A stretch of DNA of 64,000 nt from Gammaproteobacteria bacterium (GCA_016744065.1 JADGFA010000020.1:4930-68929); one strand, 5' to 3'; shown: positions 21,338 through 60,868, counted from the stretch's first letter. The notes: generated from the letters alone by a model not told the origin. Numbers and translations are program-made.

Positions 21338-22398
21338 AATGGCTTGTTAACCCATCTTCTTCTAGATTCCTGTCTGTTTTATTAGCTATATTATCAAGTG
21401 TATCGCCATTAAAATCTGAAACACTGTTAACTCTGCCTGGGTTTACAGCAACAGCCAACATACAATTAGAGAATAACCCTGATGAAAGCCTGGTTTACGT
21501 TTCTGGCACCGTTAAAAAAATAAATACGCCGTCAGCAGAAAATATAATTGCCCCCAATATAACCGTGCGTTTCTGGCAGCCAGAAAATCCGGGCTCTTAT
21601 GTTACCGCAATAACAAATGAAAATGGTGTGTATACCATTGGTTTAACAGAAGGGGCCTGGCAGGGAGAGGCCTGTGGTTCTGATGCAGCTTACTATCCGT
21701 CAAGCTGGCAAGTGCTGGTGCAGGATAAAAAATTATTACAGTTACAGGCACATGATCAAAAAACAATTGAGCTGGATATGTTAACGCCAAGTAACCTTAT
21801 TAATCAACATAATACGGTAACCCTGACAGGGCGTGGATTTGGCTGTAATGGATCACTGGTTTTTACCTATTCCAATTCAGTTGATATTTGTAACAAGTCT
21901 TCAGATATCGAGTATGACCATGAAGTTATAACGTTAAATGATTTTTCATATCGCACTGATACGCAATTGCGTTTTGCTATGCCAGAGCTTTCAGACGTAC
22001 GCGATGTACACAAACACATTGCTTATGTTCGATACCAGCAGGGTAATTATAAAAGTCGATACATTGGTATTGGTGAAATGGTTTTGGCATCACAGTCCTC
22101 GAATGTGATTCTTTGTCAGGGTGGGCAAGTAGCTAACCAGTCTAATGTTGCCATATTAAACGGCACCCTGGGAATGCAGGGCATTGTCACTCAGATTGGA
22201 GGAACTGCTTTTAATAATGCTGGAGCAGGGGTTGTATCCGGTGTTGTTGGTGATACGCATCTGGGTGGCGGTAATAACCCGCAATTGACAGGCAGTGATT
22301 TTGCATCGGAAATGAGTTTTCAAAATTTAGAAATTGAGGGTGTGTCTGGCATCATGCAGTTTAATGGACAAGTGCCAAATATGGAGTTAAATCAATGA
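21334..22398 (+). CDS. Secreted protein, possible carboxypeptidase-regulatory-like (transthyretin-fold) N-terminal domain
   Basis: Overlaps the preceding stop, suggesting translational coupling. Signal peptide MKWLVNPSSSRFLSVLLAILSSVSP. VSGTVKKI...ITVRFWQPENPGSYVTAITNENGVYTIGL resembles a CarbopepD_reg/Cna-B-like beta-sandwich. Confidence 0.5.
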   Translation: MKWLVNPSSSRFLSVLLAILSSVSPLKSETLLTLPGFTATANIQLENNPDESLVYVSGTVKKINTPSAENIIAPNITVRFWQPENPGSYVTAITNENGVYTIGLTEGAWQGEACGSDAAYYPSSWQVLVQDKKLLQLQAHDQKTIELDMLTPSNLINQHNTVTLTGRGFGCNGSLVFTYSNSVDICNKSSDIEYDHEVITLNDFSYRTDTQLRFAMPELSDVRDVHKHIAYVRYQQGNYKSRYIGIGEMVLASQSSNVILCQGGQVANQSNVAILNGTLGMQGIVTQIGGTAFNNAGAGVVSGVVGDTHLGGGNNPQLTGSDFASEMSFQNLEIEGVSGIMQFNGQVPNMELNQ

Positions 22399-24581
22399 GA
22401 GTACTTTTGTTTTTAGGCTTATCGTATATGATGTTGCCTGTTGTATCTCATGCTGAGATAAAGCAATCAGTTATGCAGGGGCAGCGTGTTGAATTATATC
22501 AGGTTGATGATATTTCTATTCAGTTTGCTAATTTATTTTATCGATTAGAGGGAAGCCAGAAATTTATTCAACAGCCTTTATCAAGAAAGGGTAGTCAATG
22601 GTCTGCACAGCTTAAAGGGCATCAAGTACGTGTTCCTGGTATTGAGTATTATGTTCAACTGACATATAAAAATGGGTCGATAAAAACAGATCCGCCGGCT
22701 CATCCTGAATATAATCCAGAGCGTTTAAGTGTAAATACACTATCTACAGACACAATTCATATTACTAATATGAAAAACAATAAAAATGATAGCATTGAAT
22801 TTATAGTTAATGGTTATGTAGATACTGAAACACGCGTATTTATGGGTGATACTGATATTACAGATATGATGCGCCGTGATAATGATAAATGGACATTAGA
22901 AAATGTAAGTCAGCTATTTGATGGTCCGCAGTCAATTCAGCTAGTTAACACGCAGGGTAATACCATTGCCAAAAGTGCAATAAATATAAGTAATTCTGAT
23001 GAAACGCCCGCTGCTAAAAATGGAGAATTCGTTTTACGCGGTAGTGCCAGTTTTAATATTGGGGGGCAATCGGATGATGATTCAACTACAGATGAATCAT
23101 TAGTCGTTACAGGTAATTTACACATAGAAACAGAATATACTCACAATGATTTTTCTTCTCACTTTTCTGGCGTTGATGTTAATTATGATCATAGTGCCGA
23201 TAAAGAATTCGATTTATCGTCAGGATTTTTATTTACCAATAGTTATAAAAAAACATCACTGGAATTAGGTGATGTGAATGTTAAAGGTACGCCTTTAGTT
23301 CTGTCGGGGTTTTCTCGTCGTGGTTTTGTCGCAGCGACAGAAGGTGAAACATGGAAGGGATCTGTGTTTAATGTAAGAACCAGCACGGTGGATGGATTTG
23401 AATCGGGTATATCATTTGATGACAGGCAAACCTATGGTGCATCGTATGAACAGACAATAGGTGATTCAGGCAATACAAATATTCAGATATCAGCCGTAAG
23501 CGGTGACTTACAACAGCCAGAAACCAGTAATGTAGGGTCTGCAAACACAAATGCACAGGCTGGTGATACATTGGGTTTATTAGTTTCATCAGAGTATGCA
23601 GGTGTCAATATTAATGCGGAGCTAGCAAGTTCTAAATTTGATCTAGATACAAATGATGTCAATAATGCGGTGTCTGATGAGGCCTATGAAGTTCACTTCA
23701 CAAAAAACATTTATGGCTTGGCCTCGTCTTTAGGTTATCAACATTATGGTGCAAATTATGCCACCATTGCAAACCCGAATTTCTCCGGTGATAGAGAGGG
23801 GTTAAATTTATCCTTTGGCAGTAACTGGAAGGCCGTTAGCTGGACAGCTTCACTTTCAAGTATTGAGGATAATGTGGATAATGATCCACTGCGCCCAGTG
23901 GTTACATCTGATAATGCAGGCTTAAGCCTGGATTTTGTTATTGAAAACTGGCCAGCTATTAATATTGGTTTTAATCTAACGAACCAGTCATCTGATAATG
24001 AACCAGATGCAACTGCTGAAGTGGACAATAAAGGCCATGATGTATCATTAGGTTTATCGAATAGTTTTGATGCTTACAACCTGGCCTGGAGCAGTTCTAT
24101 TGGTGAATTAAATAACAAACTGGACGTAACTAATGACAGTGAAACCTCCAGTCATTCTTTAACCATGGGTTATAACTTTGATGCTGCCGATGTTAATTTA
24201 AACCTGTCACAGAATAAAAATGAAACAGATTTTATTCTGACTTCAAATTTAGCTAATCTTTCATTAAATATACCTCTTTTTTCTGACAATGTGGTTTTAA
24301 ATACGCAATTTTCAGCGCAACAGAATGAGGCGGATAATAATTCACAGAATAATGAAATTATTGGCGGCAGTGCCAGAGTTTCCTGGACTTTACACGATAT
24401 TATTATTTTTAAGTCGATGGACTGGGTTAACCCACAGTTTGGTATTAGCTGGACTATGAACAAAACATCAGATCAGATAGATAGCAGTCTGAATGAGTCT
24501 GACAGCACCATTATGTTTGACTTTAGTTTTGGTGCACCAATCAGCTTTGAACAACGTTGGCAGTTTGATGATGAAACTTAA
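22395..24581 (+). CDS. Putative outer-membrane beta-barrel protein (728 aa)
   Basis: 4-nt overlap with the upstream gene. Signal peptide MRVLLFLGLSYMMLPVVSHA. C-terminal ~450 aa made of short alternating hydrophobic/polar strands separated by D/N/S/G-rich loops (LSLDFVIENWPAINIGFNLTN..., SHSLTMGYNFDAADVNLNLSQ...). Ends ...RWQFDDET. Confidence 0.45.
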   Translation: MRVLLFLGLSYMMLPVVSHAEIKQSVMQGQRVELYQVDDISIQFANLFYRLEGSQKFIQQPLSRKGSQWSAQLKGHQVRVPGIEYYVQLTYKNGSIKTDPPAHPEYNPERLSVNTLSTDTIHITNMKNNKNDSIEFIVNGYVDTETRVFMGDTDITDMMRRDNDKWTLENVSQLFDGPQSIQLVNTQGNTIAKSAINISNSDETPAAKNGEFVLRGSASFNIGGQSDDDSTTDESLVVTGNLHIETEYTHNDFSSHFSGVDVNYDHSADKEFDLSSGFLFTNSYKKTSLELGDVNVKGTPLVLSGFSRRGFVAATEGETWKGSVFNVRTSTVDGFESGISFDDRQTYGASYEQTIGDSGNTNIQISAVSGDLQQPETSNVGSANTNAQAGDTLGLLVSSEYAGVNINAELASSKFDLDTNDVNNAVSDEAYEVHFTKNIYGLASSLGYQHYGANYATIANPNFSGDREGLNLSFGSNWKAVSWTASLSSIEDNVDNDPLRPVVTSDNAGLSLDFVIENWPAINIGFNLTNQSSDNEPDATAEVDNKGHDVSLGLSNSFDAYNLAWSSSIGELNNKLDVTNDSETSSHSLTMGYNFDAADVNLNLSQNKNETDFILTSNLANLSLNIPLFSDNVVLNTQFSAQQNEADNNSQNNEIIGGSARVSWTLHDIIIFKSMDWVNPQFGISWTMNKTSDQIDSSLNESDSTIMFDFSFGAPISFEQRWQFDDET

Positions 24582-24605: not shown

Positions 24606-27251
24606 ATGAGTTTAATAAATAAACTAACAATTATGTTTTTAATACTGATTATCAGTGCCTGTTCATCTGAGTCATCAGAAAATGACTCAAAAGAAGGCCT
24701 GGCAAGTATAAAAGTCAGTATACCTGGTCTGGAAAATAATAAATTTATCAATAAAACCAGTTTGGGTGAATCATCACAGGCAATAGATAATGCCAGTGTT
24801 CCGGCTGAAGTTGATTCAATTATAATAGATGTTCTTGATAACCGATCTAATGTTTTAGATGCTGCCGATATACTGGCCAATAATGGTGAAGTCACTTTAA
24901 ACATTGTAGCGGGCAAAAATTACACCGTCAGGGGCAGGGCTTTTGCAAATAATGAAGTTTTATTTTCAGGTACAAGTGAAATTGATTCAATTGTGACGGG
25001 TGATCGAATTTCAGTAAGTCTTTCATTACTCGATCAGATACAACTATCATTGACGGCTTTTGCTAATACACCTGTAGGCACCGCTGAAACTGACGTATCA
25101 TTTAACTTAAACGGTTTAAATGATATTTCAATAAACTGGTACATTAATGGCATTCTGGGAGGCAACGCTCAATTTGGCACTATTAATACAGCTGGTCAAT
25201 ATACAGCACCATCGATACTTCCACTTAACACAACAATAACGGTGACCGCTGAACCTGTTAATGCACCTTCATTTGCTCAGTCGTTTACTTTTCAGTTGTT
25301 ACCCGCTATTAATATTCCCCCGGTTGCTAATGCTGGAGCTGATGTAATGGTAAATGATGGAATCACAGTTAACCTTAATGGTAATGCAAGTACTGATATT
25401 GATGGCACTATTAGTACCTATAGCTGGCTAAGAATATCCGGTGATTTTAATCCCGTATTAAATGTTGTTAATTCCACGACAGTTAGTTTTACCTCTCCAG
25501 CCATGCAGTTCGGTGGAGCAGCAACCTTCAGGCTAACCGTAACAGATAATGAGGGTGCAACTGACACAGATGATGTAATCATTACAGTTAATGGCACGGA
25601 TCAACCTTTGCTTGCCAATGCGGGGCCCGATCAAACGGTAAATGAAGGTGATTCAGGCATTACACTAACAGCTAGTGCCAGTACCGATCTGGATAATACA
25701 ATTACAGGCTATCTATGGACACAGCTGTCAGGTACTTCTGCTTTATTATCCAGTACATCTGCTGTCTCACCAACTTTTGTAGCACCTGATGTGAGTATTG
25801 ATGAAAATTTAGTTTTTCAGTTAACGGTCACCAATGATGCTGGTTTGCAAGATACAGATACTGTTACTATCAGGGTTAATAACACAGTAGTGACTACCGA
25901 GAAAATTTATTTTTCTGCACTTTCAACAGGGTTTAATCAAAATATATGGGTAACTGATGGCACTGCTCCGGGCACATTTCAGTTAGCATCCGTGGCGGTT
26001 GAAAATAATGAATTTGCACGTTTTGAAACTCTCAATAATGATTTGTATTTTCAGGGAAATGATGGTGTTAACGGACGTAAATTGTGGCGCACCGATGGTA
26101 CATTAGTTGGTACTGAGTTAGTGGTATTAGATGATGGCTCTGTAACGAATGTAGACCCTAATAATTTTGCAGTACTGGGAGACTTATTATTGCTTGGGGC
26201 TAATACCTCTTTTAATGGTTCATTTAATATACCTGAATATATTTCACTTAATAGCACTAATGATGTAATAACGCCTTTATTTAATAGTCGGCCCACAGGT
26301 GGTTATGGTGTGCATAATAATGAGCTTGGAAAAATGGATGGCTTTATTTATTTTAACGATACGACCTTTACACCCTTAGTTAGCACCAACCTCTATCGTA
26401 CCGATGGCATTAATGCTGCTACGAGTATTGCAACTGGTTTTTTTGATACTCGTATGACAGAGTTTACCGAGTTCAATAATGAACTGTATTTTGTTGTTGG
26501 TCAAAAAGAGCTCTGGAAAACAGACGGTACAAATTTAGGTACTGTTTTATTAAAAACGTTTAGTGGTCATGTCGGCTATTCCTCATCATCGAGCTTAAGC
26601 GGGGTTTATAATGGCGGCATGATCGTATTTAATAATCAGTTATTTTTTGTTGCTGATGATGGGCAGGGAAGTGAGCTTTGGGTCAGTAATGGTGTAAGTG
26701 GCAATAGCCCGGATACTCTACTGATTAAGGACCTGGATAATAATACCAGCACATCTTCCTACCCTTATGAATTTAGAGTGGTTAATGGTAATTTGCTTTT
26801 CTTTAGTGCAGAAGGTGATGCCAGTACCGATGGGTTATGGATTACTGATGGCACATCGGTTGGTACTACACGGCTTCGGGCATTATCTGTAGGCAATACG
26901 GACAGCAGTTATTTTACTCAGGGTTACGATACAGCCGTACCAACTGTTGTAAATATTAGTAGTCAGGATTTATTATTTTTTGTCGCAAATGATGGCATAA
27001 CAGGTAATGAACTATGGGTAACAGATGGAACTGTGGGCGGTACTAATCTGGTAAGTGATATCAATAGTAGTAGTCACAGTTTTCCTGCTATATTTAAGGC
27101 AGGTAATAATAAATTGATATTTTCTGCACAAGATGATGATGGGCGTGCAAAACTATGGCAAACCGATGGTACCGCAATCGGTACCTCTTTAATACTTGAT
27201 ATATGCCCTGGCTGTTTTGGGCAAGGTGCATTTTTCAGGCCTGCAGGATAA
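24606..27251 (+). CDS. Lipoprotein with tandem PKD/Big-like domains and C-terminal ELWxxDGT repeats (881 aa)
   Basis: Lipobox LIISAC. Repeated PVANAGADVMVNDGITVNLNGNASTDIDGTISTYSW / LANAGPDQTVNEGDSGITLTASASTDLDNTITGYLW modules. Then >=7 repeats of the type ELWVTDGT, KLWRTDGT, ELWKTDGT, GLWITDGT, KLWQTDGT (the ELWxxDGT beta-propeller-like repeat). Confidence 0.7.
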   Translation: MSLINKLTIMFLILIISACSSESSENDSKEGLASIKVSIPGLENNKFINKTSLGESSQAIDNASVPAEVDSIIIDVLDNRSNVLDAADILANNGEVTLNIVAGKNYTVRGRAFANNEVLFSGTSEIDSIVTGDRISVSLSLLDQIQLSLTAFANTPVGTAETDVSFNLNGLNDISINWYINGILGGNAQFGTINTAGQYTAPSILPLNTTITVTAEPVNAPSFAQSFTFQLLPAINIPPVANAGADVMVNDGITVNLNGNASTDIDGTISTYSWLRISGDFNPVLNVVNSTTVSFTSPAMQFGGAATFRLTVTDNEGATDTDDVIITVNGTDQPLLANAGPDQTVNEGDSGITLTASASTDLDNTITGYLWTQLSGTSALLSSTSAVSPTFVAPDVSIDENLVFQLTVTNDAGLQDTDTVTIRVNNTVVTTEKIYFSALSTGFNQNIWVTDGTAPGTFQLASVAVENNEFARFETLNNDLYFQGNDGVNGRKLWRTDGTLVGTELVVLDDGSVTNVDPNNFAVLGDLLLLGANTSFNGSFNIPEYISLNSTNDVITPLFNSRPTGGYGVHNNELGKMDGFIYFNDTTFTPLVSTNLYRTDGINAATSIATGFFDTRMTEFTEFNNELYFVVGQKELWKTDGTNLGTVLLKTFSGHVGYSSSSSLSGVYNGGMIVFNNQLFFVADDGQGSELWVSNGVSGNSPDTLLIKDLDNNTSTSSYPYEFRVVNGNLLFFSAEGDASTDGLWITDGTSVGTTRLRALSVGNTDSSYFTQGYDTAVPTVVNISSQDLLFFVANDGITGNELWVTDGTVGGTNLVSDINSSSHSFPAIFKAGNNKLIFSAQDDDGRAKLWQTDGTAIGTSLILDICPGCFGQGAFFRPAG

Positions 27252-50318: not shown

Positions 50319-52055
50319 ATGGCAGATCTTTCAAATCAACAAAAAGTCCATGAGGCTCAAATTGCTTTATTACTAAAGCAGTTCCGAGTGACGGGTTTAT
50401 CCAATGTTTTTATATTAAGCATTGCTGCTGCCGTTATCTGGTCAATGACTCAGAGCCTTTTTGTATTGCCCTGGCTTATAGTGGGTTATGGTTTGGTCGC
50501 ATTAAGGCCTTTAGTCTTAGGGCTACAAAATAAAGCTCAAAATAAGCAATTAACAGGGTCTCAATTAGAGCATACGGTTACATTGTTATTAGTCATGTCC
50601 GCATTGCATTGGGGTGTCATTGTTTGGGAGTATTATGATGTCAATAATATTGAGCTTTTTCTGTTTATATCAGCTATCTATTTAGGGCTGGTATCTGGTT
50701 CGATGCCCAGTTTATCTGTACGCTTTCCAGTATGGATGATTTATGCCATAAGTATGTTTTTAACACTCGTTATTAAAATGCTTTATTTAAGTAGCTGGTC
50801 TATGGCAATGATGCTGTCTATTTACTGTACCGCTTTTATTTATTTTGGACGTAATTTATCTAAAAAAATAGAGCATTCAATTACTCTTGATTTAAAAAAT
50901 ACAGAGCTATTAAAAGAGGTTAATCTAGCAAAAGAGCATGCCGAAAAAGCAAATTTAGCAAAGTCAAAATTTATGGCTTCAGCAAGTCATGATTTGCGCC
51001 AGCCTTTGCACGTGCAAAGCATGTTGCTCGAAGTGTTAAGCTTACGTTTAGAAGATAAAAAGCTAGATCAGGATGAATTAAAAAATCTAGTGAATAAAAT
51101 AACTCAATCTAATAGTGCATTAAATAAACTGTTTAATGCACTATTAGAAATTTCTCAGTTAGATGCGGGTACTTTAAAAGTCAATTTAAGTCATCAAAAT
51201 TTAAATGAATTAAGTGCTAATTTATTTGAAGAGTATCGAATTTTGGCGCAACAAAAGGGCTTGTTATTTAAAGTGGAGGTGGAAGACTGTACCGTCATTA
51301 GTGACCCTATTTTGCTACAGCGAATTCTGAGCAACCTACTAAGTAATGCATTAAAATTTACAGAAAAAGGATGCATATCCATCAGTGTTAAAAACAGGCT
51401 GGATGATGTTGAAATTATTATAGCAGATACGGGTATTGGTATAGATGCTACCCAGTTTGAAAGAATATTTGAGGAATATGAACAAGTTGGTAACCAGGCA
51501 AGAGACAGGAATAAAGGCATTGGCCTGGGTTTGGCCCTGGTGTCTCGCTTGTGTGAGTTATTAAATCATAAGGTTGACGTCACCTCAAAATTGTTAAAAG
51601 GTTCTGAGTTTAAAGTAACGTTGGCACGTGGTGATGAGCCTAAAGTGATTAGCGTTGATACTGATATTAACTATAATCAAATAGATAACACTCAAATACT
51701 CCTCATCGATGATGAGCAAGACATTGTTAATGCAATGTCGCTGATATTGACAAATTGGGGAGCTAGAGTACAAGGTGTATCCTCAATAGAGGAGGCTTTG
51801 TGTTTGATTGAAAGCAGTCAGTATGAACCTGATTTAATTATTTCTGATTATCGCTTAAAGAGCAAAGAAACAGGGCTTGAAGGATTGTCTTTAATTAATA
51901 ATAGAATAGGAAAAACTATTCCTTCATTACTGATTTCAGGTGATACAGACCCTGAGTTATTAGAAAAAATTAATAAACAAAATTTATATATATTGCATAA
52001 GCCAGTAAAAGCACAGTTGTTAAAAAAAGTAATTAATATATTGTTAAAGCAATAG
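50319..52055 (+). CDS. Hybrid sensor histidine kinase (membrane sensor + HisKA + HATPase_c + REC)
   Basis: ~6 N-terminal TM helices. H-box ASASHDLRQPLH. N/G boxes (LSNALKFT, DTGIGI, GIGLGLALV). C-terminal receiver (LLIDDEQDIV...ISDYRL...HKP). Confidence 0.8.
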   Translation: MADLSNQQKVHEAQIALLLKQFRVTGLSNVFILSIAAAVIWSMTQSLFVLPWLIVGYGLVALRPLVLGLQNKAQNKQLTGSQLEHTVTLLLVMSALHWGVIVWEYYDVNNIELFLFISAIYLGLVSGSMPSLSVRFPVWMIYAISMFLTLVIKMLYLSSWSMAMMLSIYCTAFIYFGRNLSKKIEHSITLDLKNTELLKEVNLAKEHAEKANLAKSKFMASASHDLRQPLHVQSMLLEVLSLRLEDKKLDQDELKNLVNKITQSNSALNKLFNALLEISQLDAGTLKVNLSHQNLNELSANLFEEYRILAQQKGLLFKVEVEDCTVISDPILLQRILSNLLSNALKFTEKGCISISVKNRLDDVEIIIADTGIGIDATQFERIFEEYEQVGNQARDRNKGIGLGLALVSRLCELLNHKVDVTSKLLKGSEFKVTLARGDEPKVISVDTDINYNQIDNTQILLIDDEQDIVNAMSLILTNWGARVQGVSSIEEALCLIESSQYEPDLIISDYRLKSKETGLEGLSLINNRIGKTIPSLLISGDTDPELLEKINKQNLYILHKPVKAQLLKKVINILLKQ

Positions 52056-52086
52056 GCTTATAGTTATTAATGTTGATGAGTAAATA

Positions 52087-52728
52087 ATGAAAAATATTTT
52101 AGTAATAGATGATCATCCAGTTTTTGTTGATGGCATTACATCATTTATCAGAAATGTATTGCCAAACTCAAATATAGTTACTTGTGTAAATGGTGATGAA
52201 ACGTTAAAGCAGCTACATAGATCAATTGGTTTTGACTGGATTTTTTTAGATATCAATTTACCTGATGTTTCTGGACTTGAATTATTAAAACAGTTTTTAG
52301 AACTTAAAGTTTTAGCTAATGTTATTGTTGTCTCAAGTGATGAAAACCCTGAAACAATACATGCTGCGTTAGAACTTCATGCCAATGGTTTTATTTCTAA
52401 GCAATTTAATACGGATGTTTTTAAAAAATGTATGCAAACGATTGAGAGAGGGGGCGTCTATCTTGACAAACAACAGGCTCAGTCGTTAAAAAATTACAGA
52501 GAAGGGATCTTTATCGAAAAAAAATACATCCAGGAGAACATCAGTGAGCGGCAGCAAGAAGCTTTGCTCATGATTTCTAAGGGATTAAGCAACCAGGAGA
52601 TTGCTGCACTGATGAATATTTCGGAAAGTACAGTAAAAACACATATCTCATTATTAATGAATTTATTTGAGGCTGATAATCGCTCTCATTGTGTTGCAGA
52701 AGCAAAACGACTTGGTTTTACTCTTTAG
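52087..52728 (+). CDS. Response regulator, LuxR/FixJ family
   Basis: REC (ILVIDDHPVFVDGI...IFLDINLPDVSG). C-terminal LuxR HTH (ISERQQEALLMISKGLSNQEIAALMNISESTVKTHISLLMNLF). Confidence 0.8.
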   Translation: MKNILVIDDHPVFVDGITSFIRNVLPNSNIVTCVNGDETLKQLHRSIGFDWIFLDINLPDVSGLELLKQFLELKVLANVIVVSSDENPETIHAALELHANGFISKQFNTDVFKKCMQTIERGGVYLDKQQAQSLKNYREGIFIEKKYIQENISERQQEALLMISKGLSNQEIAALMNISESTVKTHISLLMNLFEADNRSHCVAEAKRLGFTL

Positions 52729-52857: not shown

Positions 52858-54558
52858 TTAACGAATAAAACTTAGAAATAAATAACTAGCAAGAATCACA
52901 GCAACCCACATAACCATACTGCCTGCTGGATATGTGCGTGAAAGTAAACCACAGATTCCCTCATGTCTTTTAGAAAGAAATGACAGACACTGATTTAACC
53001 TTATGAGAAATGCCTGACGTAAAGCACTGTCTACCTGCCATATAACGGAAAACATTTGTTGTAATGTGTTGGGCAATACACGGCGATAAATCCAGTCAAA
53101 ATCTAGATTTGTAGAACGTAATTCGGGGGGATACATTCCTTTGAGATTAAGCCAGACAAAAGCCAGCGCAGAGAAGAACAGCAACTGAGTCTGTGCTAGT
53201 ACGTGGGTTGCATCATAAGGGTTGTAACTCGTGTTGTAAGGTAACAAAGAGTACAGGGCTGATGGATAGACCCCAATCGCAATACAAAGAACGGCAGCTA
53301 TCAGCATTGCTAATAACATGTTGTTGGGTGGATCACTTGCGCGGATGCCTGAGTCGTGAGCGAAGAAAGCAAAGTAGGGGATTTTAATACCCGCATGATG
53401 AAAAACCCCTGCTGAGGCAAATAACAGCATTAGCCATATCCAGTCATAACCATTTTCCAGGGCAGCGGACATCACCATTGATTTGCTCACGAAACCACTG
53501 AATAAAGGGAAAGCCGATATAGATGCAGCCCCTACAATGCACAGCACTGTGGTCTTAGGCATGGTTTTATATAAGCCACCAAGGTCAGAGCCATTGATGC
53601 GCCCTGTCATATGCAGCACGGCTCCCATTGACATAAATAACAAACCTTTAAAAATGACATCATTAAAAGCATGTGAAATTGCGCCATTAAGCGCGAGAGC
53701 GGTTCCAATACCGATACCGACAACCATAAACCCAACCTGATTGATAAGGCTATAGGCCAGCACCCGGCGTAGATCGTTTTCTATTACTGCAAAAAATATC
53801 GGGAAGCAGGTCATAGCTGCGCCAATATAAACCAGCAACTCTGTGCCAGGGTACCCACGAGCTAATGCATAAACGGCTACTTTGGTAGTAAACGCGCTGA
53901 GAAAAACAGTGCCTGTAACAGTGGCTTCAGGGTATGCATCAGTGAGCCAGTTGTGGGCCATAGGAAATGCACACTTAATGCCAAAGGCGATAAAGATCAA
54001 CCACCCTGAAACACCCTCTAGACCTATGTGACCGAACTCTAAAGTGTTGTTTTCGGAGGCATAAAATAGTGCGCCTGCAAGAAGAATGACACCGGATAAA
54101 ACTTGAATAATGAGGTAGCGCATACCAGCAACATAAGAGCTTTTAGTTCTGCGCGCCCAGATAAGAAATACTGAGGTAAATGCCAGTAATTCCCAGAAGA
54201 CAAATAACGTTAATAAATCACCCGCAAAAACAGCCCCCAGGCCACTGCCTGCATACAACATAGCAGCCATTTGTTGCATTGTGTCGCGAACGTGCAGGGA
54301 GTAGATAATGGCAATAAATGCGGCGAGGTGAAAAACGTAACCGAACATGAGGCTCAGCTTATCAACACGGTAAGGCGTTAGTTGATAATCTAGAAAAGTG
54401 AAATGTAAATGGATTCCTTCAGCTACTCCCCAGAGGTGGAGGGCACTCAGTACAGGTATTGCTAGCATAATCACATTGCGCAAAATACCTCGGGTGAACA
54501 GGACAATTAGTGCGCCTATAAAGAAAGGCAGAAAAGGGGGGATCTCAGGCATCCACAT
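52858..54558 (-). CDS. Proton-conducting antiporter-like membrane subunit (NuoL/MrpA N-terminal-like), third large subunit of the Mrp-type cluster
   Basis: 566 aa, ~16 TM. Proton_antipo_M-like core (…FVFWELLAFTSVFLI…, …GFMVVGIGIGT…). Last gene of the minus-strand operon. Confidence 0.7.
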   Translation of the reverse strand: MWMPEIPPFLPFFIGALIVLFTRGILRNVIMLAIPVLSALHLWGVAEGIHLHFTFLDYQLTPYRVDKLSLMFGYVFHLAAFIAIIYSLHVRDTMQQMAAMLYAGSGLGAVFAGDLLTLFVFWELLAFTSVFLIWARRTKSSYVAGMRYLIIQVLSGVILLAGALFYASENNTLEFGHIGLEGVSGWLIFIAFGIKCAFPMAHNWLTDAYPEATVTGTVFLSAFTTKVAVYALARGYPGTELLVYIGAAMTCFPIFFAVIENDLRRVLAYSLINQVGFMVVGIGIGTALALNGAISHAFNDVIFKGLLFMSMGAVLHMTGRINGSDLGGLYKTMPKTTVLCIVGAASISAFPLFSGFVSKSMVMSAALENGYDWIWLMLLFASAGVFHHAGIKIPYFAFFAHDSGIRASDPPNNMLLAMLIAAVLCIAIGVYPSALYSLLPYNTSYNPYDATHVLAQTQLLFFSALAFVWLNLKGMYPPELRSTNLDFDWIYRRVLPNTLQQMFSVIWQVDSALRQAFLIRLNQCLSFLSKRHEGICGLLSRTYPAGSMVMWVAVILASYLFLSFIR

Positions 54559-54877
54559 CGGGTCTACCTATTTCGTCATTTTGTTTTTTATCAACACTAC
54601 TGAGTTTTTCACCAATATCTGCTTTGCCTTCATTGGCATAATAATCTTCCGAGCGCATAAGAAAAGTACGCATCCATGTGGCGATTAACACCAGCACAAC
54701 GCAGCCAACAAAACCATAAAGCGGATAGAATCCCCAAAGGTTTTCCCAGTTGTGCATGACGTGACGATGGATAACAAAGTCCAATACAAAAAGAAGTACA
54801 CAACTCCCATAGAGAAAATACAAAAGTCGTTTTATATTTTTAGGATTATCAAAAAGATATTTTTTTTTATTTTCCAT
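54545..54877 (-). CDS. Small membrane protein (110 aa) embedded in the Mrp-type operon
   Basis: Two TM helices. Overlaps neighbours on both sides, suggesting translational coupling. No family recognised. Confidence 0.45.
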   Translation of the reverse strand: MENKKKYLFDNPKNIKRLLYFLYGSCVLLFVLDFVIHRHVMHNWENLWGFYPLYGFVGCVVLVLIATWMRTFLMRSEDYYANEGKADIGEKLSSVDKKQNDEIGRPDVDA

Positions 54878-54880
54878 GAG

Positions 54881-56362
54881 TTACTCCGGGGTTGCCAAAA
54901 TGGCCTTAGCCAATTCATATAACGGTTGTGGATATACAAAAAGAACCACGCAACCCACAGTGGTAATACTCAATGCAATTAATGATGCTAGTGGAGCTTC
55001 TTTTATCTTGGTGCCTGTATTCGCAAATGGAATATTATTTTTAGAGAAAAAGGCATGAAAAGGTATGGGTAATAGATAAGCAATATTCAGCAAAGAGCTG
55101 ATCATAAGTACCACCATAAGAATCCATTGCTCAGTTTCCAGAGTACCCATTAGCAGAAACCACTTGCTCCAGATTCCCCCGGCGGGGGGGACACCAATGA
55201 TGCTGAGGCTGGCAATAAAAAATGCCGCCATGGTAATTGGCATTTGCAGGCCAAGGCCACGCATTTCACTTATTTTTGATTTATGTGCTGTGACCAGAAT
55301 GGCACCTGCACAGAAAAACAGGGTGATCTTGCCAAAAGCATGTGTGGCAATATGCATTGAGCTACCAATAACGCCCGCCGATGTCGCCAACAATGCGCCA
55401 ATAGTGATATAGCCCAGTTGGCTTATGGTTGAGTATGCCAGTCTGGCTTTTAAATTGTCCTGGCGCATAGCCACCAGTGAGGCCAGTAATACAGATGCAC
55501 CTGCTAGATAGAGTAAGAACTGCGTGGTTGGCAGTATCGATAACAAATCAATGCCAAAGATAAATAGACATACTTTCAATATGGTGAATACGCCAGCCTT
55601 TACCACGGCTACAGCATGCAGCAGAGCACTCACGGGTGTTGGTGCAACCATTGCCGCCGGTAACCAGCGATGAAAAGGCATAATTGCGGCTTTGCCAATA
55701 CCAAAAATAAACAGCACCAATATTACACCTGCAACGGTGGTATTAACGTCAGAATCAAATATGCCACCGGGTTTAAAGTCTAATGTGCCGGCCACAAACC
55801 AGGTACTGATAATGGCTAAAAGGAAAAAGACAATTGAAGTACCCAGCAATACTCCAAGATAAACTCGTCCGCCTTTTTTTGCCTTTTCAGTACCCGCATG
55901 GGTAACTAATGGGTAGGTGGACAGGGTTAGTGTTTCGTAGAAAATAAATAGGGTGAATAGGTTTTCGGCAAATGCAATCCCCATCACGCTGCCAATGGCG
56001 ATAGCAAAACAGGCATAGAATTGAGTTTGATTCTGTTCCTCATGGTGGCGCATATAACCGATGGAGTAGACAGTGGTTATTAGCCAGAGAAAGCTGGCAA
56101 TTAAAGCAAACAGCATTCCCAGCGGTTCAATGTTAAAGCTTATCTGTAAATTGGGTAAAAGCGGCCACCAGGTCACACTGATACTTTCACCCTGTTTGAT
56201 TCCCTGATAAAGATTAACTGAAAGGTAGAGCAGTATTAAACTGCTAATAATGGTCACAGCCTCACGCAAGTTGGGTTTGTTGCCTGTTGCCACAATAGCC
56301 AGCGTCGTTAATATGGGCAGGATAATACTCAGTTGTAGCATGGATTCCAGAGAAAGAGTCAT
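54881..56362 (-). CDS. mrpD: Mrp antiporter subunit D-like (NuoM/N-like) membrane protein
   Basis: 493 aa, ~14 TM, Proton_antipo_M core. 4-nt overlap with the upstream mrpD-like gene. Confidence 0.75.
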   Translation of the reverse strand: MTLSLESMLQLSIILPILTTLAIVATGNKPNLREAVTIISSLILLYLSVNLYQGIKQGESISVTWWPLLPNLQISFNIEPLGMLFALIASFLWLITTVYSIGYMRHHEEQNQTQFYACFAIAIGSVMGIAFAENLFTLFIFYETLTLSTYPLVTHAGTEKAKKGGRVYLGVLLGTSIVFFLLAIISTWFVAGTLDFKPGGIFDSDVNTTVAGVILVLFIFGIGKAAIMPFHRWLPAAMVAPTPVSALLHAVAVVKAGVFTILKVCLFIFGIDLLSILPTTQFLLYLAGASVLLASLVAMRQDNLKARLAYSTISQLGYITIGALLATSAGVIGSSMHIATHAFGKITLFFCAGAILVTAHKSKISEMRGLGLQMPITMAAFFIASLSIIGVPPAGGIWSKWFLLMGTLETEQWILMVVLMISSLLNIAYLLPIPFHAFFSKNNIPFANTGTKIKEAPLASLIALSITTVGCVVLFVYPQPLYELAKAILATPE

Positions 56363-57837
56363 GGATTCACCCCGAACAAACTCTGCGATGCGGCCTGTGC
56401 AACCTCAATGCTAAGGCGCGTATCTATGCCGAAATAAATGTTGGCCATTACCAGTATCCAGATGGGAACCAGCAATGAAAATGGTGCTTCCTTAATGTTT
56501 TCATTGCTGGTTAATGGAGGCCTAAAATAAGCCATTTCAACGATTCGCCACACGTAAACAACGGCTAAAAGTGAGCCTAGTAGGATAAGTAATGCAACAG
56601 GCCACCAGCCACTTTCAATCACCGCCAGAATCAGATACCACTTGCTAACAAAGCCAACAGTGAGTGGCACCCCTATTAAACTTAAGCCGCCTATTACAAT
56701 GGCTGCCATAGTGATGGGCATTTGACGACCCAGACCCTGAAACTGACTCAGTTGAACACTACCTATACGGTACATCACTGCACCTAGTGCTAAAAACAGG
56801 GCGCTTTTCATTAAAGCGTGATTAAACAGGTGCAATAAGGTCGCCATTAAACCGGTTGTTGTACTAACGCTGAATCCAACAATCATGTAACCGATCTGAG
56901 CGATACTTGAGTAGGCGAATAGATGTTTGACATTTTTTTGATAGATCGCCGCAATTGAGGCTGCAAATATTCCTGATAGACCCAGCACCAAAAACAGAAT
57001 ATGTAGGGGCAGGGCTGTAAAAGAAAAGGAAAGCCCGAATACTGAAAAGGTAAAGCGAATAAGTAAATAAATAGCAACTTTTGTTGCCGTAGCCGCAAAG
57101 AATGCCGTTACTATTGAAGGCGCATAAGCATAGGCATTAGGCAGCCATAGATGCAATGGAAACAGTGCCAGTTTCAGGCAGATGCCCACAATAACAAAGG
57201 CAAAAGCAGTAAAAACAGTTCGAGTATGCGCCACCTCTGGCAGACGTATAGAAAGGTCATGCATATTCAGGGTGCCGGTCATCTGGTACATCAAACCTAT
57301 ACCTATCAGGATAAATGTGGCACCAATGGTTCCCATAATTAAATACTGATAGGCTGCCCAGAGCGCGCGTCTGTCTTTGCCCAATGCGATTAAAGCGTAA
57401 GCTGACAGGGAAGAAATTTCCAGAAATACAAAGACATTAAAAGCATCACCTGTCGCAACTATGCCAAGCATTCCGGCCAGAGATAACAGGTATAAAATAT
57501 AAAAATAGCTATGTTTTTCTGCGGGAATTTCCTTTTGTATACTGGTATCAGCGGCAAGTAGTACAACAGTACTAACCGATGAAATAATCAGTAACAGGAA
57601 TGCATTAAGATGATCGATACGATATTCAATACCCCAGGGTGCATCCCATCCCCCCAGTTCGTAAATAATAATGCCCGAAGTCATTACCTGCTGCAGTAAA
57701 AGGGCGCTGATCAAAAAAGCTAAACCACTTACCATTAAAGCGAACAGCCATACCAGGCGTGATCGTGTTAGAAACAGGCACAAAGGTGCAGCCATAAGCG
57801 GCACAATAACTTGTAAAACTGGCAAATGCGTTAACAA
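56359..57837 (-). CDS. mrpD: Mrp antiporter subunit D-like (NuoM/N-like) membrane protein
   Basis: 492 aa, ~14 TM. …LIMGTIGATFILIGIGL…, …AYSSIAQIGYMIVG…. Confidence 0.75.
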   Translation of the reverse strand: MLTHLPVLQVIVPLMAAPLCLFLTRSRLVWLFALMVSGLAFLISALLLQQVMTSGIIIYELGGWDAPWGIEYRIDHLNAFLLLIISSVSTVVLLAADTSIQKEIPAEKHSYFYILYLLSLAGMLGIVATGDAFNVFVFLEISSLSAYALIALGKDRRALWAAYQYLIMGTIGATFILIGIGLMYQMTGTLNMHDLSIRLPEVAHTRTVFTAFAFVIVGICLKLALFPLHLWLPNAYAYAPSIVTAFFAATATKVAIYLLIRFTFSVFGLSFSFTALPLHILFLVLGLSGIFAASIAAIYQKNVKHLFAYSSIAQIGYMIVGFSVSTTTGLMATLLHLFNHALMKSALFLALGAVMYRIGSVQLSQFQGLGRQMPITMAAIVIGGLSLIGVPLTVGFVSKWYLILAVIESGWWPVALLILLGSLLAVVYVWRIVEMAYFRPPLTSNENIKEAPFSLLVPIWILVMANIYFGIDTRLSIEVAQAASQSLFGVNP

Positions 57838-58184
57838 TCCAGGTTGTCCTTTTTTTGTATTTCTTCTTCTTCAATGCTTCCATAGGTTTCTTTAATGCGC
57901 ACTGCCAGTGCGAGTCCCAAAGCGGTGGTGGCAATGCCAACTACAATTGCAGTGAGAATTAAAACGTGTGGTAAGGGGTTTGAATATTGAGTTATGCCAT
58001 CAGCTAAAATGGGAGCAGTGCCACCATCAACCTTAGCCATACTGATATAAAATATAAAAACTGACGTCTGAAAAATGCTCAGCCCAACAATCTTCTTAAT
58101 AAGATTGCCATGAGCGATAACGATGTAAAACCCGACCATCATCAGCACCACCACAATCCAGTAGTTATAGAGTCCCATTAACAT
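57831..58184 (-). CDS. mrpC: Mrp antiporter subunit C (NuoK-like)
   Basis: 117 aa, 3 TM. MLMGLYNYWIVVVLMMVGFYIVIAHGNLIKKIVGLSIFQTSVFIFYI matches MnhC/NuoK. Confidence 0.8.
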   Translation of the reverse strand: MLMGLYNYWIVVVLMMVGFYIVIAHGNLIKKIVGLSIFQTSVFIFYISMAKVDGGTAPILADGITQYSNPLPHVLILTAIVVGIATTALGLALAVRIKETYGSIEEEEIQKKDNLDC

Positions 58185-59248
58185 TACTTTTTGTTATTTT
58201 CCTTGAGGTTATTTTCTATGCCGTTACTTTCAAGGTTTTGACCGTTATCTTTGCGGTCTGCAAAACTGAAAAAGATGATGACCATAACCGATGCAACCGT
58301 GCAGCCAACGCCCAGTTCGATTAAAAGTATGCCCAGGTGTTGGCCTGCAATTGGGTCAACAGATAAAGCGCTGTAATCAAAAAAATTTTTGCCGTTTAAC
58401 AGGGAAACAACACCTACACTGCCGTATAGCAAAACGCCGATAGCTGCTAGCAACTGAATAAAGGACTGATTAATCACTCGACGTGCGGTACTCATGCCAA
58501 ACAACATGGCATACAGGAAAATGGCTGAGGCAAAGATCACGCCGGCTTGAAAACCACCGCCTGGGCCATAATCTCCATGAAACTGTACATAAAATGCATA
58601 GAGAAAAATAAAAGGAATCAGCATTTTGGTTACAATGCGCAGAACTAAATGTTGCTCGTGCATTGAGTCATTGATCAAGTCAATTTTTGCAATATCTCTG
58701 GCTTTATCCCCTGTTGTATTTTTGGGACGACGCACCACTGACAAAAGCGCCAATACTCCCATGCCTGCGGTAAAAATTACGACCACTTCACCAAAAGTAT
58801 CGAATGCTCTATAGCTTGCGAGCACAGAAGTTACGATATTTGGTACGCCTACTTCCTCTATAGAATCGTTAATGTAACGAGGTGCAACATGTTGGTGAAC
58901 TGGGGCTTGTGCAGAGCCAAAATACGGCATATCCAGAGTGCCATAGATCAACAGGCTGCCGGTGATAATCACTACAGCTAAAGCTAAAAAAGGTTTATGA
59001 CGAACCGGATGCTCTGAACGTCCTGTCATGGCAATTGTTACCAGCATGAGCAGAGTAGAAATCCCCGCACCCACGGATGCTTCTGTAAATGCCACGTCAA
59101 CAGCATCCATCGCGACAAAAAAACTAGCTGATAACAAACCGTAAATGCCTAATAGCATAATCACCGCTAGCAGGTCTTTCATCCAGACAATGGCAAAGGC
59201 AATACCTACCAGAAAGGCCAGTAAGACTATATCAATCAGGGATTCCAT
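58184..59248 (-). CDS. mrpB: Fusion of MrpA C-terminal region (DUF4040 + MnhB-like domain) with MrpB
   Basis: 354 aa. N-terminal DUF4040-like TM pair. Middle ...NIVTSVLASYRAFDTFGEVVVIFTAG... (PF04039-type). C-terminal ...FHGDYGPGGGFQAGVIFASAIF... (the MrpB GPGGGF motif). Confidence 0.7.
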   Translation of the reverse strand: MESLIDIVLLAFLVGIAFAIVWMKDLLAVIMLLGIYGLLSASFFVAMDAVDVAFTEASVGAGISTLLMLVTIAMTGRSEHPVRHKPFLALAVVIITGSLLIYGTLDMPYFGSAQAPVHQHVAPRYINDSIEEVGVPNIVTSVLASYRAFDTFGEVVVIFTAGMGVLALLSVVRRPKNTTGDKARDIAKIDLINDSMHEQHLVLRIVTKMLIPFIFLYAFYVQFHGDYGPGGGFQAGVIFASAIFLYAMLFGMSTARRVINQSFIQLLAAIGVLLYGSVGVVSLLNGKNFFDYSALSVDPIAGQHLGILLIELGVGCTVASVMVIIFFSFADRKDNGQNLESNGIENNLKENNKK

Positions 59249-59577
59249 GGCTTCACCTGTTCACTGTCTGGTTTCTCATTATTCTTTTGTGAAAAATCAT
59301 TGCGCATTGCAGCGCTGGCTAGAGCATGGCTTGCTGTGGGGCTAATAAATAAACTCATGATCAGGATGATCATGAGTTTAATATCCACAAAAAAATCTGG
59401 ATTGTGTAACATTAAACCGATTAAAATCATCGCAGTGGCTAAAGTTTCAGTCACACCAACCGCATGCATTCGAGTATAAAAATCTGGAAAGCGTAAAATA
59501 CCAACCCCGCCCGATATGCACAAAAAACTGCCTGTTAATAAAAACACTGAGCTACTTATATTTATGAAAGTATCCAT
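59236..59577 (-). CDS. mrpG: Mrp antiporter subunit G
   Basis: MDTFINISSSVFLLTGSFLCISGGVGILRFPDFYTRMHAVGVTETLATAMILIG is the MnhG/PhaG signature. Internal ATG at 59577 preferred over the 59694 track start, which overlaps mrpF by ~100 nt. Confidence 0.75.
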   Translation of the reverse strand: MDTFINISSSVFLLTGSFLCISGGVGILRFPDFYTRMHAVGVTETLATAMILIGLMLHNPDFFVDIKLMIILIMSLFISPTASHALASAAMRNDFSQKNNEKPDSEQVKPWNP

Positions 59578-59593
59578 TATAAATTTTTTTTCA

Positions 59594-59869
59594 TTATTTT
59601 TTCTGTTGATTGCTGTGCTTAAATATTGAACTGTCTGAATAACGCAACACGCCAATAACACTGATAAAATTAATGAGGGCGTAGACGATAGCAATATCCA
59701 GAAACTCGGGGCGCCCCATCACAAAACCTAACAGTGAAATGAGCAGAACTGTCTTAGTGCCAAACATATTGACGGCAAGGATACGGTCGTAGAGCGTAGG
59801 CCCCATGATCCCTCGAGTGATGGCCATAACCATGACAATAAGAATGGCTAAGGTTGCAGCTATTAGCAT
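59594..59869 (-). CDS. mrpF: Mrp antiporter subunit F
   Basis: 91 aa, 3 TM. ...AITRGIMGPTLYDRILAVNMFGTKTVLLISLLG... matches MnhF. Confidence 0.75.
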   Translation of the reverse strand: MLIAATLAILIVMVMAITRGIMGPTLYDRILAVNMFGTKTVLLISLLGFVMGRPEFLDIAIVYALINFISVIGVLRYSDSSIFKHSNQQKK

Positions 59870-60339
59870 TAATTTTCCAGTTGAGCGACGCGGCGATCCA
59901 TTTCACCGGCTTTAAGTTCTTTTATCGATTCCTGTAATAAAGCGTGTACCATAAATTGGTCACCTTGCAAATTTACGGTAACGGTACCCGGTGTCAGCGT
60001 AATAGAATTTGCGTAGATAACTTTTCCTATATCCGTTTTCTGACTGGCAGTAATGGTTGTAAAAGCGGGAGATATAGACTTGTTGCCAAGCCAGATATGT
60101 TTAACAACCAGGAAATTTGCGAGAATGATTTCTTTATTCAGCCATGCATAGAAGCCAGGAAGTTTTAGCGTGAGATGCATGGGTTGAGATTCGTGGTCGA
60201 CTACATCCATTCGGTGGGCGATGTATATAACAAAGACAATCGAAATCATGCCAAGTGACAGCATGAGTGTGGTGTTGTGACCTGAGTTAAGTAACCAGAA
60301 AGTAACTAAAGTCAGAGATAGAATAATGGTATGTCGCAT
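59869..60339 (-). CDS. mrpE: Mrp antiporter subunit E
   Basis: 156 aa. MRHTIILSLTLVTFWLLNSGH... matches the MnhE N-terminus. First gene of the minus-strand operon. Confidence 0.75.
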   Translation of the reverse strand: MRHTIILSLTLVTFWLLNSGHNTTLMLSLGMISIVFVIYIAHRMDVVDHESQPMHLTLKLPGFYAWLNKEIILANFLVVKHIWLGNKSISPAFTTITASQKTDIGKVIYANSITLTPGTVTVNLQGDQFMVHALLQESIKELKAGEMDRRVAQLEN

Positions 60340-60433: not shown

Positions 60434-60868
60434 TTAATTTTGACTAAGTTGATTACACGGGTATTCAGTTTTAAATATCTTTAAAATGGTATCTCTTAGC
60501 ATTTTAACGCTAACAATTTGAGGTGATAGTTGCTTTGCAACCGTCTTTATAACAAGTTCATTCGATTCATTAACGGGTATGCAAAAATGATAAAAACCGC
60601 TGGGTAATGTTCGACCCTTAGTGCGATAGGGTTTATATTTTTTGTTAGTCTGTTCATCTTTAACTAAAGAGTTAATGGCTTGAGCATTGGCAAGAAAGCC
60701 TTGAATAAAATACTTACAGGATTCGGTATTTTCATGCTCTGATGTGGCTATTAAAGACTGACAGGATGAAAGTAAGTGGAGATCGTCATTTTGCCTGATT
60801 TTTTCAGTTGCAAAAACTGACAATGAAGCAAATGATGCAATAACAAATAGATACGCCCTGAATTTCAT
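60434..60868 (-). CDS. Secreted hypothetical protein (144 aa)
   Basis: Signal peptide MKFRAYLFVIASFASLSVFA. No family recognised. Confidence 0.4.
   Translation of the reverse strand: MKFRAYLFVIASFASLSVFATEKIRQNDDLHLLSSCQSLIATSEHENTESCKYFIQGFLANAQAINSLVKDEQTNKKYKPYRTKGRTLPSGFYHFCIPVNESNELVIKTVAKQLSPQIVSVKMLRDTILKIFKTEYPCNQLSQN

Follow-up and report, generated by a model that had tools for sequence, protein, structure and literature searches.

A nine-gene Mrp-type operon with three antiporter-like subunits and a conserved small protein in a gammaproteobacterial contig

Layout of the operon

The minus strand of a 64,000-nucleotide stretch of a Gammaproteobacteria bacterium assembly (GCA_016744065.1 JADGFA010000020.1:4930-68929; hereafter, the window) carries, from position 60339 down to 52858, nine co-directional open reading frames (ORFs) separated by intergenic gaps of -14 to +16 nt. 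The ORFs belong to the Mrp (CPA3) family of cation/proton antiporters, with MrpB, C, D, E, F and G and both MrpA domains encoded together in one operon, in the order E-F-G-(Ac,B)-C-D1-D2-x-D3, where Ac denotes MrpA's C-terminal domain, D1 to D3 are large antiporter-like subunits, and x is a small protein. The first-pass annotation of this DNA, made from the sequence alone, had already placed E, F and G at the head of the operon, and domain scans agree with this placement. It had also recognized three separate antiporter-like subunits, each of which contains a Proton_antipo_M domain (492, 493 and 566 amino acids [aa]), and an additional 110-aa protein with two transmembrane (TM) helices ahead of the last of the three, which turned out to be a conserved gene. 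For comparison of gene order, species-representative genomes were searched with a D3 profile and 80 related loci were fetched, 20 of which end at contig ends so that only the distal genes are visible.

The operon opens with mrpE (59869-60339; 156 aa; Pfam MNHE, E=2e-24), which leads the cluster in all complete related loci, followed by mrpF (59594-59869; 91 aa; Pfam MrpF_PhaF, E=1e-17), whose best PDB matches are MbhB, MbsB and MrpF, and by mrpG (59236-59577; Pfam PhaG_MnhG_YufB; TIGR01300 score of 79.5 against a cut-off of 63.1). The mrpG gene can be read as a 152-aa ORF starting at a TTG codon, but this form is too long: homology begins at residue 40 and favors the ATG at 59577, read from the sequence, which yields a product of 113 aa. 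Next come a fusion of the MrpA C-terminal domain with MrpB, Ac-B (58184-59248; 354 aa; Pfam MbhD at residues 11-75, MbhE at 114-179 and MnhB at 202-323; NF009161 score of 457.6, cut-off 272), and the NuoK-like mrpC (57831-58184; 117 aa; Pfam Oxidored_q2; NF005624 score of 136.8, cut-off 95, with NF005621 passed as well). The remaining genes encode D1, a subunit of the MrpD/MbhH/MbsH type with 14 TM helices and the Proton_antipo_M domain, without a lateral helix (56359-57837; 492 aa); D2, which has a NuoL/MrpA-type core (Pfam Proton_antipo_N and Proton_antipo_M), likewise without a lateral helix (54881-56362; 493 aa); x, a two-TM small subunit that represents a conserved, unannotated family (54545-54877; 110 aa); and D3, a putatively distal antiporter-like subunit with a lateral helix (52858-54558; 566 aa; Proton_antipo_M; NF009310 score of 775.2, cut-off 564). 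The D1 and D2 genes overlap by 4 nt. The C-terminal extension of D3 (52864-53211) consists of TM15 (residues 450-472), a lateral amphipathic helix (487-533) and TM16 (545-565), as assigned by DSSP on an AlphaFold2 (AF2) model. Curated NCBIfam cut-offs, including those for Na+/H+ antiporter subunit B (NF009161, PRK12507) and subunit D (NF009310, PRK12668), are exceeded by Ac-B, MrpC, MrpG and D3, and D1 and D2 fall under every equivalog cut-off.

Large subunits, the lateral helix and protein x

The Ac-B protein combines an MbhD plus MbhE part (residues ~4-180) with an MrpB part (residues ~200-334) and aligns unbroken with residues 604-906 of the group 2 MrpA of Dietzia; the MrpA C-terminal domain is therefore joined here to MrpB. 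This colinearity substantiates the earlier suggestion that MrpA is split, with its C-terminal module fused to MrpB, and the GPGGGF motif that had been placed after residue ~200 occupies residues 229-234. Among the 60 related loci compared for this feature, Ac and B are fused in 20, encoded by two genes in 36, and split otherwise in 4, so that the fusion is a minor lineage variable.

The three large subunits share only modest pairwise identity (D1/D2, 31%; D2/D3, 26%; D1/D3, 30%) and differ in their closest structural relatives. For D1, the best PDB matches are MbsH (258 bits), MbhH (199) and MrpD (195 and 176), followed by NuoN; for D2, they are NdhF, ND5 and NuoL. D2 is also the only one of the three to carry the NuoL/MrpA-type histidine in TM8 (H249), present in 70 of 70 orthologues, and its chain stops after TM14. 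D3 is far in sequence from every solved chain; its AF2 model (predicted local distance difference test [pLDDT] of 91.3) comprises a 14-TM core, TM15, a 47-residue helix and TM16, and a Foldseek search with this model returned MrpA, NdhF and NuoL as the best matches (TMq 0.79-0.81), with MrpD-type chains that have no extension at 0.70. The characteristic channel residues, a TM5 glutamate and lysines in TM7, TM8, TM11 and TM12, are kept in all three subunits (60, 70 and 81 orthologues of D1, D2 and D3, respectively). E140, K222, K253, K344 and K399 of D1 are invariant, as are E143, K224, K255, K345 and K400 of D2 and E123, K226, K304 and K359 of D3; K195 of D3 is present in 75 of the 81 orthologues, with the TM7 lysine replaced by asparagine in the other six.

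In a neighbor-joining tree of the large subunits with split-based bootstraps, D2 and D3 each form a clade with 100% bootstrap, and each clade includes a haloarchaeal member and a rhizobial member from the complex I variant discussed below; D1 groups with its haloarchaeal counterpart at 66%. D1, D2 and D3 appear from their sequences to be old paralogues of distinct kinds. The label D-D-x-A' of the first-pass annotation thus captured the presence of three large subunits, but its two "D" proteins are not equivalent copies, and its A' belongs to a distinct family that NCBI names subunit D. Three neighboring Proton_antipo_M genes might be taken to mean that mrpD was recently duplicated in tandem to give the third large subunit, which would have no special role, an outcome that the annotation itself had named as fatal to its reading if combined with a widespread and already described gene order. 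The order is indeed widespread and partly described, but the low identities, the well-supported separate clades with haloarchaeal and rhizobial members, and the differing signature residues and C-termini rule out a recent duplication for practical purposes. The deeper nodes of the tree lack resolution, and none of the three subunits groups specifically with NuoL, NuoM or NuoN.

The C-terminal extension of D3 provides a ruler of sorts. In complex I, the lateral helix of NuoL runs over NuoM and NuoN. The linker between TM15 and TM16 is ~76 residues long in D3, compared with ~80 in Escherichia coli NuoL and ~40 in the canonical MrpA of P. megaterium and D. shibae. Across most related three-module Mrp loci, the distance from a conserved LDxDWxYR motif to TM16 is 56-60 residues. 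It increases to 84-86 residues in loci from Desulfobacterota and Nitrospirota (L063, L064, L072 and L076), where the extension is differently built, with an additional hydrophobic segment, and measures 78 residues in the D3-like subunit of the Sinorhizobium meliloti complex I variant, where one more module is present. The lateral helix has been described as only just reaching across however many antiporter-like subunits it connects, with the Mrp helix spanning two proton paths (PMC8165549). We infer from the linker length and the AF2 model that D3 could be the distal subunit, with its helix running back across D2 and D1 in the manner of NuoL in complex I. This NuoL-length TM15-lateral helix-TM16 unit strengthens the comparison with the complex I membrane arm that the three modules had suggested from the outset; the deep nodes of the tree do not decide the question of ancestry raised together with it.

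Protein x, which is predicted to contain two TM helices, is a real conserved gene. Of 83 loci, 81 have it between D2 and D3, and it is marked by two motifs, HRH..WE..FY..YGF and R..LMR.EDYY. It has no match in Pfam, NCBIfam or PDB, and a profile search of a protein database collected 1755 clusters of homologues, every one of them named "hypothetical" and none with a Pfam domain. In a plasmid collection, homologues were found only in rhizobia (94 records), and among the matches listed, those in annotated records overlap a "hypothetical protein" and the adjacent "Na+/H+ antiporter subunit D"; the single locus of this set that was looked at in detail is that of the Sinorhizobium meliloti complex I variant. 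The AF2 model of x is a helical hairpin (residues 12-39 and 50-73) with a disordered tail, predicted with low confidence (pLDDT 62). Positively charged residues flank the hairpin on both sides, a pattern suggestive of a cytoplasmic location for both termini; the Mrp lateral helix runs along the cytoplasmic surface (PMC9568556). Several identities for x were considered and rejected. Divergent MrpC, MrpE, MrpF or MrpG and a copy of the D3 tail all yielded hhalign probabilities of at most 7.7%, and an MbhI-like protein is disfavored by the lack of any PDB match and of a long helix between the two TMs.

Distribution, proposed function and ion path

Relatives of D3 were found in at least 597 species-level genomes, and the order E-F-G-Ac/B-C-D1-D2-x-D3 is preserved in all 60 loci that span the region from the 5' genes to D3. 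The hosts come from seven bacterial phyla and include Gamma- and Alphaproteobacteria, Desulfobacterota, Nitrospirota, Gemmatimonadota, Acidobacteriota, Latescibacterota and Campylobacterales; they are chiefly marine, saline or soda-lake organisms, and cultured carriers include Shewanella benthica, Microbulbifer guangxiensis, Parahaliea mediterranea, Neptuniibacter sp. PT1 and Kangiella koreensis. The occurrence of an identical order across these phyla, and in haloarchaea without x, contradicts the idea, entertained at first, of a lineage-specific rearrangement.

The operon probably encodes a stand-alone monovalent cation/proton antiporter of the Mrp (CPA3) group 3 type, driven by the proton motive force and equipped with an extra proton module. 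The full set of Mrp functions contained in one tightly coupled operon argues for this interpretation. The roles of canonical MrpA would be spread over three proteins, with D2 supplying the NuoL/MrpA-type 14-TM core, D3 supplying a second, divergent core together with TM15, the lateral helix and TM16, and the Ac-B fusion supplying the C-terminal domain. The complex may be arranged as [E-G-F-B/Ac-C]-D1-D2-(x)-D3, with the lateral helix of D3 reaching back over D2 and D1 and its TM16 anchored beside the Ac/C region. Three Glu/Lys channels, one each in D1, D2 and D3, would admit protons, whose entry would drive the expulsion of the cation through the E/F/G/B/Ac module, at a ratio of H+ per cation presumably higher than that of a two-module Mrp. 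Protein x would serve as an obligate structural partner of the D2-D3 pair.

Part of this gene set also occurs in a redox enzyme. The nuo cluster on pSymA of S. meliloti runs nuoJ, nuoK, genes for a D2-like protein (487 aa), a hypothetical protein of 84 aa and a D3-like protein (586 aa), then nuoM, nuoN and nuoA onward, and the 84-aa protein is a homologue of x. This arrangement corresponds to green complex I, in which two MrpD-like subunits replace NuoL and the lateral helix resides on MrpD2 (Yu and Leadbetter, PMC9040806). D2-x-D3 is a cassette common to the three-module Mrp class and this complex I variant; neither x nor the link between D2-x-D3 and green complex I was described in the literature searched. 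Given that the cassette stands in for nuoL in the pSymA operon, and that group 3 Mrp modules often belong to respiratory complexes (PMC8415708), the window operon could encode the membrane arm of a redox-driven pump similar to membrane-bound hydrogenase (MBH), the related MBS complex or green complex I, with the peripheral redox module located elsewhere in the genome. We consider this improbable. Of the 80 related loci, 79 have no NuoA-F, H, I or J homologue within 10 kb, and a search with NuoB and NuoD of S. meliloti, which are homologous to MbhJ and MbhL, gave a match in only 1 of the 80. The operon also lacks a NuoH/MbhM-like coupling subunit and contains the complete E/F/G/B set typical of stand-alone Mrp. 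On the source contig, the genes within ~10 kb encode, by Pfam, a two-component system, a rhodanese, an M48 peptidase, NhaA, small regulators and proteins without a Pfam match, and no conserved flanking or accessory genes were found around the related loci. With unconserved flanks and no genes for complex I peripheral subunits or for NuoH, NuoA or NuoJ nearby, the unit therefore looks self-contained.

The nine genes might represent two unrelated neighbors, a Pyrococcus furiosus-like E-F-G-B-B'-C-D antiporter followed by an independent D2-x-D3 transporter. Each half has a precedent, the former standing alone in P. furiosus and the latter occurring without E, F, G or B in green complex I. Such a chance association is very unlikely, considering the 4-nt overlap that joins D1 to D2 and the synteny of all nine genes in every complete locus from the seven phyla; furthermore, a complex deprived of D3 would have neither a lateral helix nor TM16.

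To evaluate the ion path, the residues numbered in the Bacillus pseudofirmus system (PMC9568556) were mapped by alignment, and their conservation was counted in the family. MrpA D678 and D776 correspond to D51 and D150 of Ac, both invariant, and E780 corresponds to E154, kept in 62 of 63 sequences. MrpF D32 is D28 here (kept in 58 of 59), and D58 of MrpF is likewise among the invariant acidic residues of the proposed Na+ route. Other positions differ. MrpA E687 is replaced by G60 of Ac (glycine in 60 of 61), with a glutamate, E56, one helical turn earlier (62 of 62); MrpA D771 is replaced by S145 (serine in 52 and aspartate in 10 of 62); and MrpF Asp38 is replaced by N34 (asparagine in 57 of 59). 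The predicted Na+ route seems mostly intact yet carries family-wide changes.

The substituted MrpF Asp38 and the shifted MrpA Glu687 would be in keeping with an Mrp-type exchanger that has another substrate or direction, for example one exchanging K+ or Ca2+ for H+, or one using the marine Na+ gradient to expel protons. Mrp systems specific for K+ or Ca2+ do exist (PMC5703873), and the group 3 Mrp of P. furiosus has been proposed to import Na+ in exchange for H+ (PMC8415708). Most acidic residues of the Na+ route are nevertheless retained (Ac D51, D150 and E154; MrpF D28 and D58), most hosts live in marine, saline or soda-lake settings, and genome surveys interpret the cluster as salt adaptation (PMC9426454), which together make a different substrate or direction rather unlikely. 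Additional precedents for the stand-alone antiporter interpretation come from characterized group 3 systems: the P. furiosus mrpEFGBB'CD system uses Na+ (PMC8415708), and the cyanobacterial group 3 Mrp of Aphanothece complements Na+-sensitive E. coli as a Na+/H+ antiporter (PMC5703873).

Several observations count against a stand-alone three-module antiporter as just outlined. Two Na+-handling residues are altered throughout the family (MrpF Asp38→Asn; MrpA Glu687→Gly, with Glu one turn earlier), which may bear on the ion specificity. The pLDDT of the lateral helix is just 52-87 in the AF2 model of D3, and both the reach of the helix and the placement of x are derived from linker length and single-chain AF2 models, not from a model of the complex. 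Neither a structure nor an activity assay of the three-module form was found in the literature searched. Green complex I, a redox enzyme, uses the D2-x-D3 cassette as well, and the genome may encode a redox partner at another place.

The operon may have been transferred between lineages. The nearest relatives of the window D3 are split between Emcibacter (Alphaproteobacteria; 86%) and Shewanella (Gammaproteobacteria; 83%), and the sequences from the window, Emcibacter and Shewanella group tightly for D1, D2 and D3 alike. The GC content of the operon is 0.43 versus 0.38 for the rest, and its GC at third codon positions (GC3) is 0.415 versus 0.321±0.053 for other genes in the window, with x as the exception within the operon (GC3 of 0.32). 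The split nearest relatives, the tight clustering and the GC3 values together suggest that the operon moves horizontally as a block. The composition signal is only suggestive because other membrane-protein genes in the window reach a GC3 of 0.41; it is compatible with acquisition but does not prove it, and the split among the nearest D3 relatives is the stronger indication.

The surroundings of the operon include several further features. At its 3' end, a hybrid histidine kinase (HisKA, HATPase_c, Response_reg) and a LuxR/GerE-type response regulator (50319-52728, plus strand) converge on it; this pair is not conserved beside the operon in other genomes. The 129-bp spacer at this end contains no terminator hairpin, and a promoter and terminator scan returned nothing above shuffled expectation. 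Upstream, 94 bp from mrpE, lies a gene for a 144-aa protein with a signal peptide and a weak, sub-threshold Rap1a match (60434-60868, minus strand); homologues occur in loci of two Shewanella species (L005 and L015) and an uncultured gammaproteobacterium (L009) and not in other related loci. A gene for an NhaA-type Na+/H+ antiporter lies ~3.5 kb upstream of mrpE on the source contig (L001 1-694), just outside the window on its right side; at least two Na+/H+ exchangers are thus encoded close to each other in this organism. In a deltaproteobacterial metagenome-assembled genome, a second Mrp-like cluster lies beside the nine-gene one (L072 10770-17853, minus strand), in the order D3-like ... E-B-F-G-MbhD-MbhE-C-D1-like; it is cut at the end of the locus, and x was not detected in the visible part. 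Farther away in the window, a single 4617-aa ORF (6129-19982, plus strand) with a signal-peptide-like N-terminus encodes a giant secreted protein of unknown family; it matches no Pfam family at E≤0.001, and self-BLASTP revealed no internal repeats. It is followed on the same strand by an ORF with fn3 (19985-21337), two ORFs without a Pfam match (21316-22398 and 22395-24581) and an ORF with PKD/Big_9 (24606-27251).

Significance and comparison with known systems

To our knowledge, only the two-module forms of groups 1 and 2 have provided Mrp structures and mechanisms. What makes the present case of interest is the subclass rather than the window itself: three intact proton modules with what may be a NuoL-length brace, an unnamed ninth subunit, and a cassette shared with green complex I. 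We tentatively propose, with a little less than even confidence, that these operons constitute a distinct and very widespread Mrp class outside current structural reviews, in which a lateral helix of complex I length on D3 ties three proton modules together with the aid of x, and that D2-x-D3 is a portable "distal pump cassette" plugged into antiporters and complex I alike. Were this so, the class would serve as a model, free of redox chemistry, of the way in which module number determines the H+/ion stoichiometry and in which the complex I arm gained modules. Marine, saline and soda-lake bacteria as well as haloarchaea commonly carry the three-module Mrp, which would allow redox-free tests of module number against H+ per Na+ and of the role of the lateral helix. 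It would also explain the origin of the two "MrpD-like" subunits and of the unnamed small ORF of green complex I. Protein x deserves a family name, and in surveys that report "MrpBCDEFG without MrpA", D2, D3 and Ac should be recognized as MrpA equivalents.

Group 3 Mrp systems have been defined by an irregular gene order (PMC5703873) and by the absence of mrpA, with only mrpD-type genes, sometimes in several copies (PMC8415708). The window operon fits this published group, having the order E-F-G-AcB-C-D-D-x-D, no mrpA, and large subunits that match MrpD-type NCBIfam models. Thus, the notion that the arrangement is undescribed does not hold. Clusters of this kind have been noted before: a Nitrospira group 3 cluster was reported with "two genes downstream from mrpD" resembling NuoM and NuoL (PMC7784846), and "MrpBCDEFG" was found enriched in marine and soda-lake Gemmatimonadota (PMC9426454). 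The cluster is widespread, little studied and already annotated piecemeal, and the subclass is structurally and functionally uncharacterized.

Every subunit function of canonical group 1 Mrp (mrpABCDEFG; Anoxybacillus flavithermus 6Z16, B. pseudofirmus 7QRU) has a homologue in the window operon, the same Glu/Lys channel residues occur in the antiporter-like subunits of groups 1 and 2, and the Ac-B junction is the same as in MrpA' of group 2 (mrpA'CDEFG; Dietzia 7D3U). In contrast to groups 1 and 2, the gene order is rotated so that EFG come first, there is no single MrpA, with the core, lateral helix and C-terminal domain distributed over D2, D3 and Ac-B, and there are three antiporter-like modules instead of two. 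Moreover, the linker of the lateral helix is ~2-fold longer, subunit x is added, MrpF Asp38 is changed to Asn, and MrpA Glu687 is shifted by one turn.

Within group 3, the 5' half of the operon has the same order as the stand-alone Mrp of P. furiosus, E-F-G-B(MbhD/E)-B'-C-D, but the latter has one antiporter-like subunit and no lateral-helix subunit, whereas D2, x and D3 are added here. The Mrp modules of MBH and MBS are also similar, with D1 nearest to MbsH and MbhH and with MbhD, MbhE and MnhB domains present; the NiFe-hydrogenase-like subunits (MbhJ-N) of those complexes are absent from the cluster. A haloarchaeal counterpart, on a plasmid of Halosolutus gelatinilyticus (E-F-G-DUF4040-MnhB-C-D-D-D), shares the order and the same three paralogue families, but has no detectable homologue of x, encodes Ac and B in separate genes, and has longer large subunits with acidic insertions. 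Cyanobacterial group 3 systems, compared here on the basis of reviews, likewise combine small A and B proteins with several D-type subunits, as in Aphanothece halophytica mrpCD1D2EFGAB (PMC5703873) and Synechocystis slr2006-2013 with NdhD5/NdhD6 (PMC4390856). The cyanobacterial order is a circular permutation of the one described here, and these systems are reported with two D genes, separated by a small ORF, as opposed to three.

The likeness to the complex I membrane arm (NuoL/M/N/K/J) extends to three antiporter-like modules, a NuoK homologue and a linker of NuoL length on the putatively distal subunit. Unlike in complex I, there are no NuoH, NuoA or NuoJ subunits and no Q or N modules beside the operon in the window, and the TM8 histidine of the NuoL type belongs to the middle subunit, D2, and the lateral helix to D3. 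Green complex I shares the D2-x-D3 cassette, including a D3-like gene with the lateral helix. There, however, the cassette is located between nuoK and nuoM of a redox-driven enzyme, without MrpE, F, G or B, and the segment from the motif to TM16 of its D3-like subunit is ~20 residues longer (78 versus 56-60 aa) than in the three-module Mrp systems.

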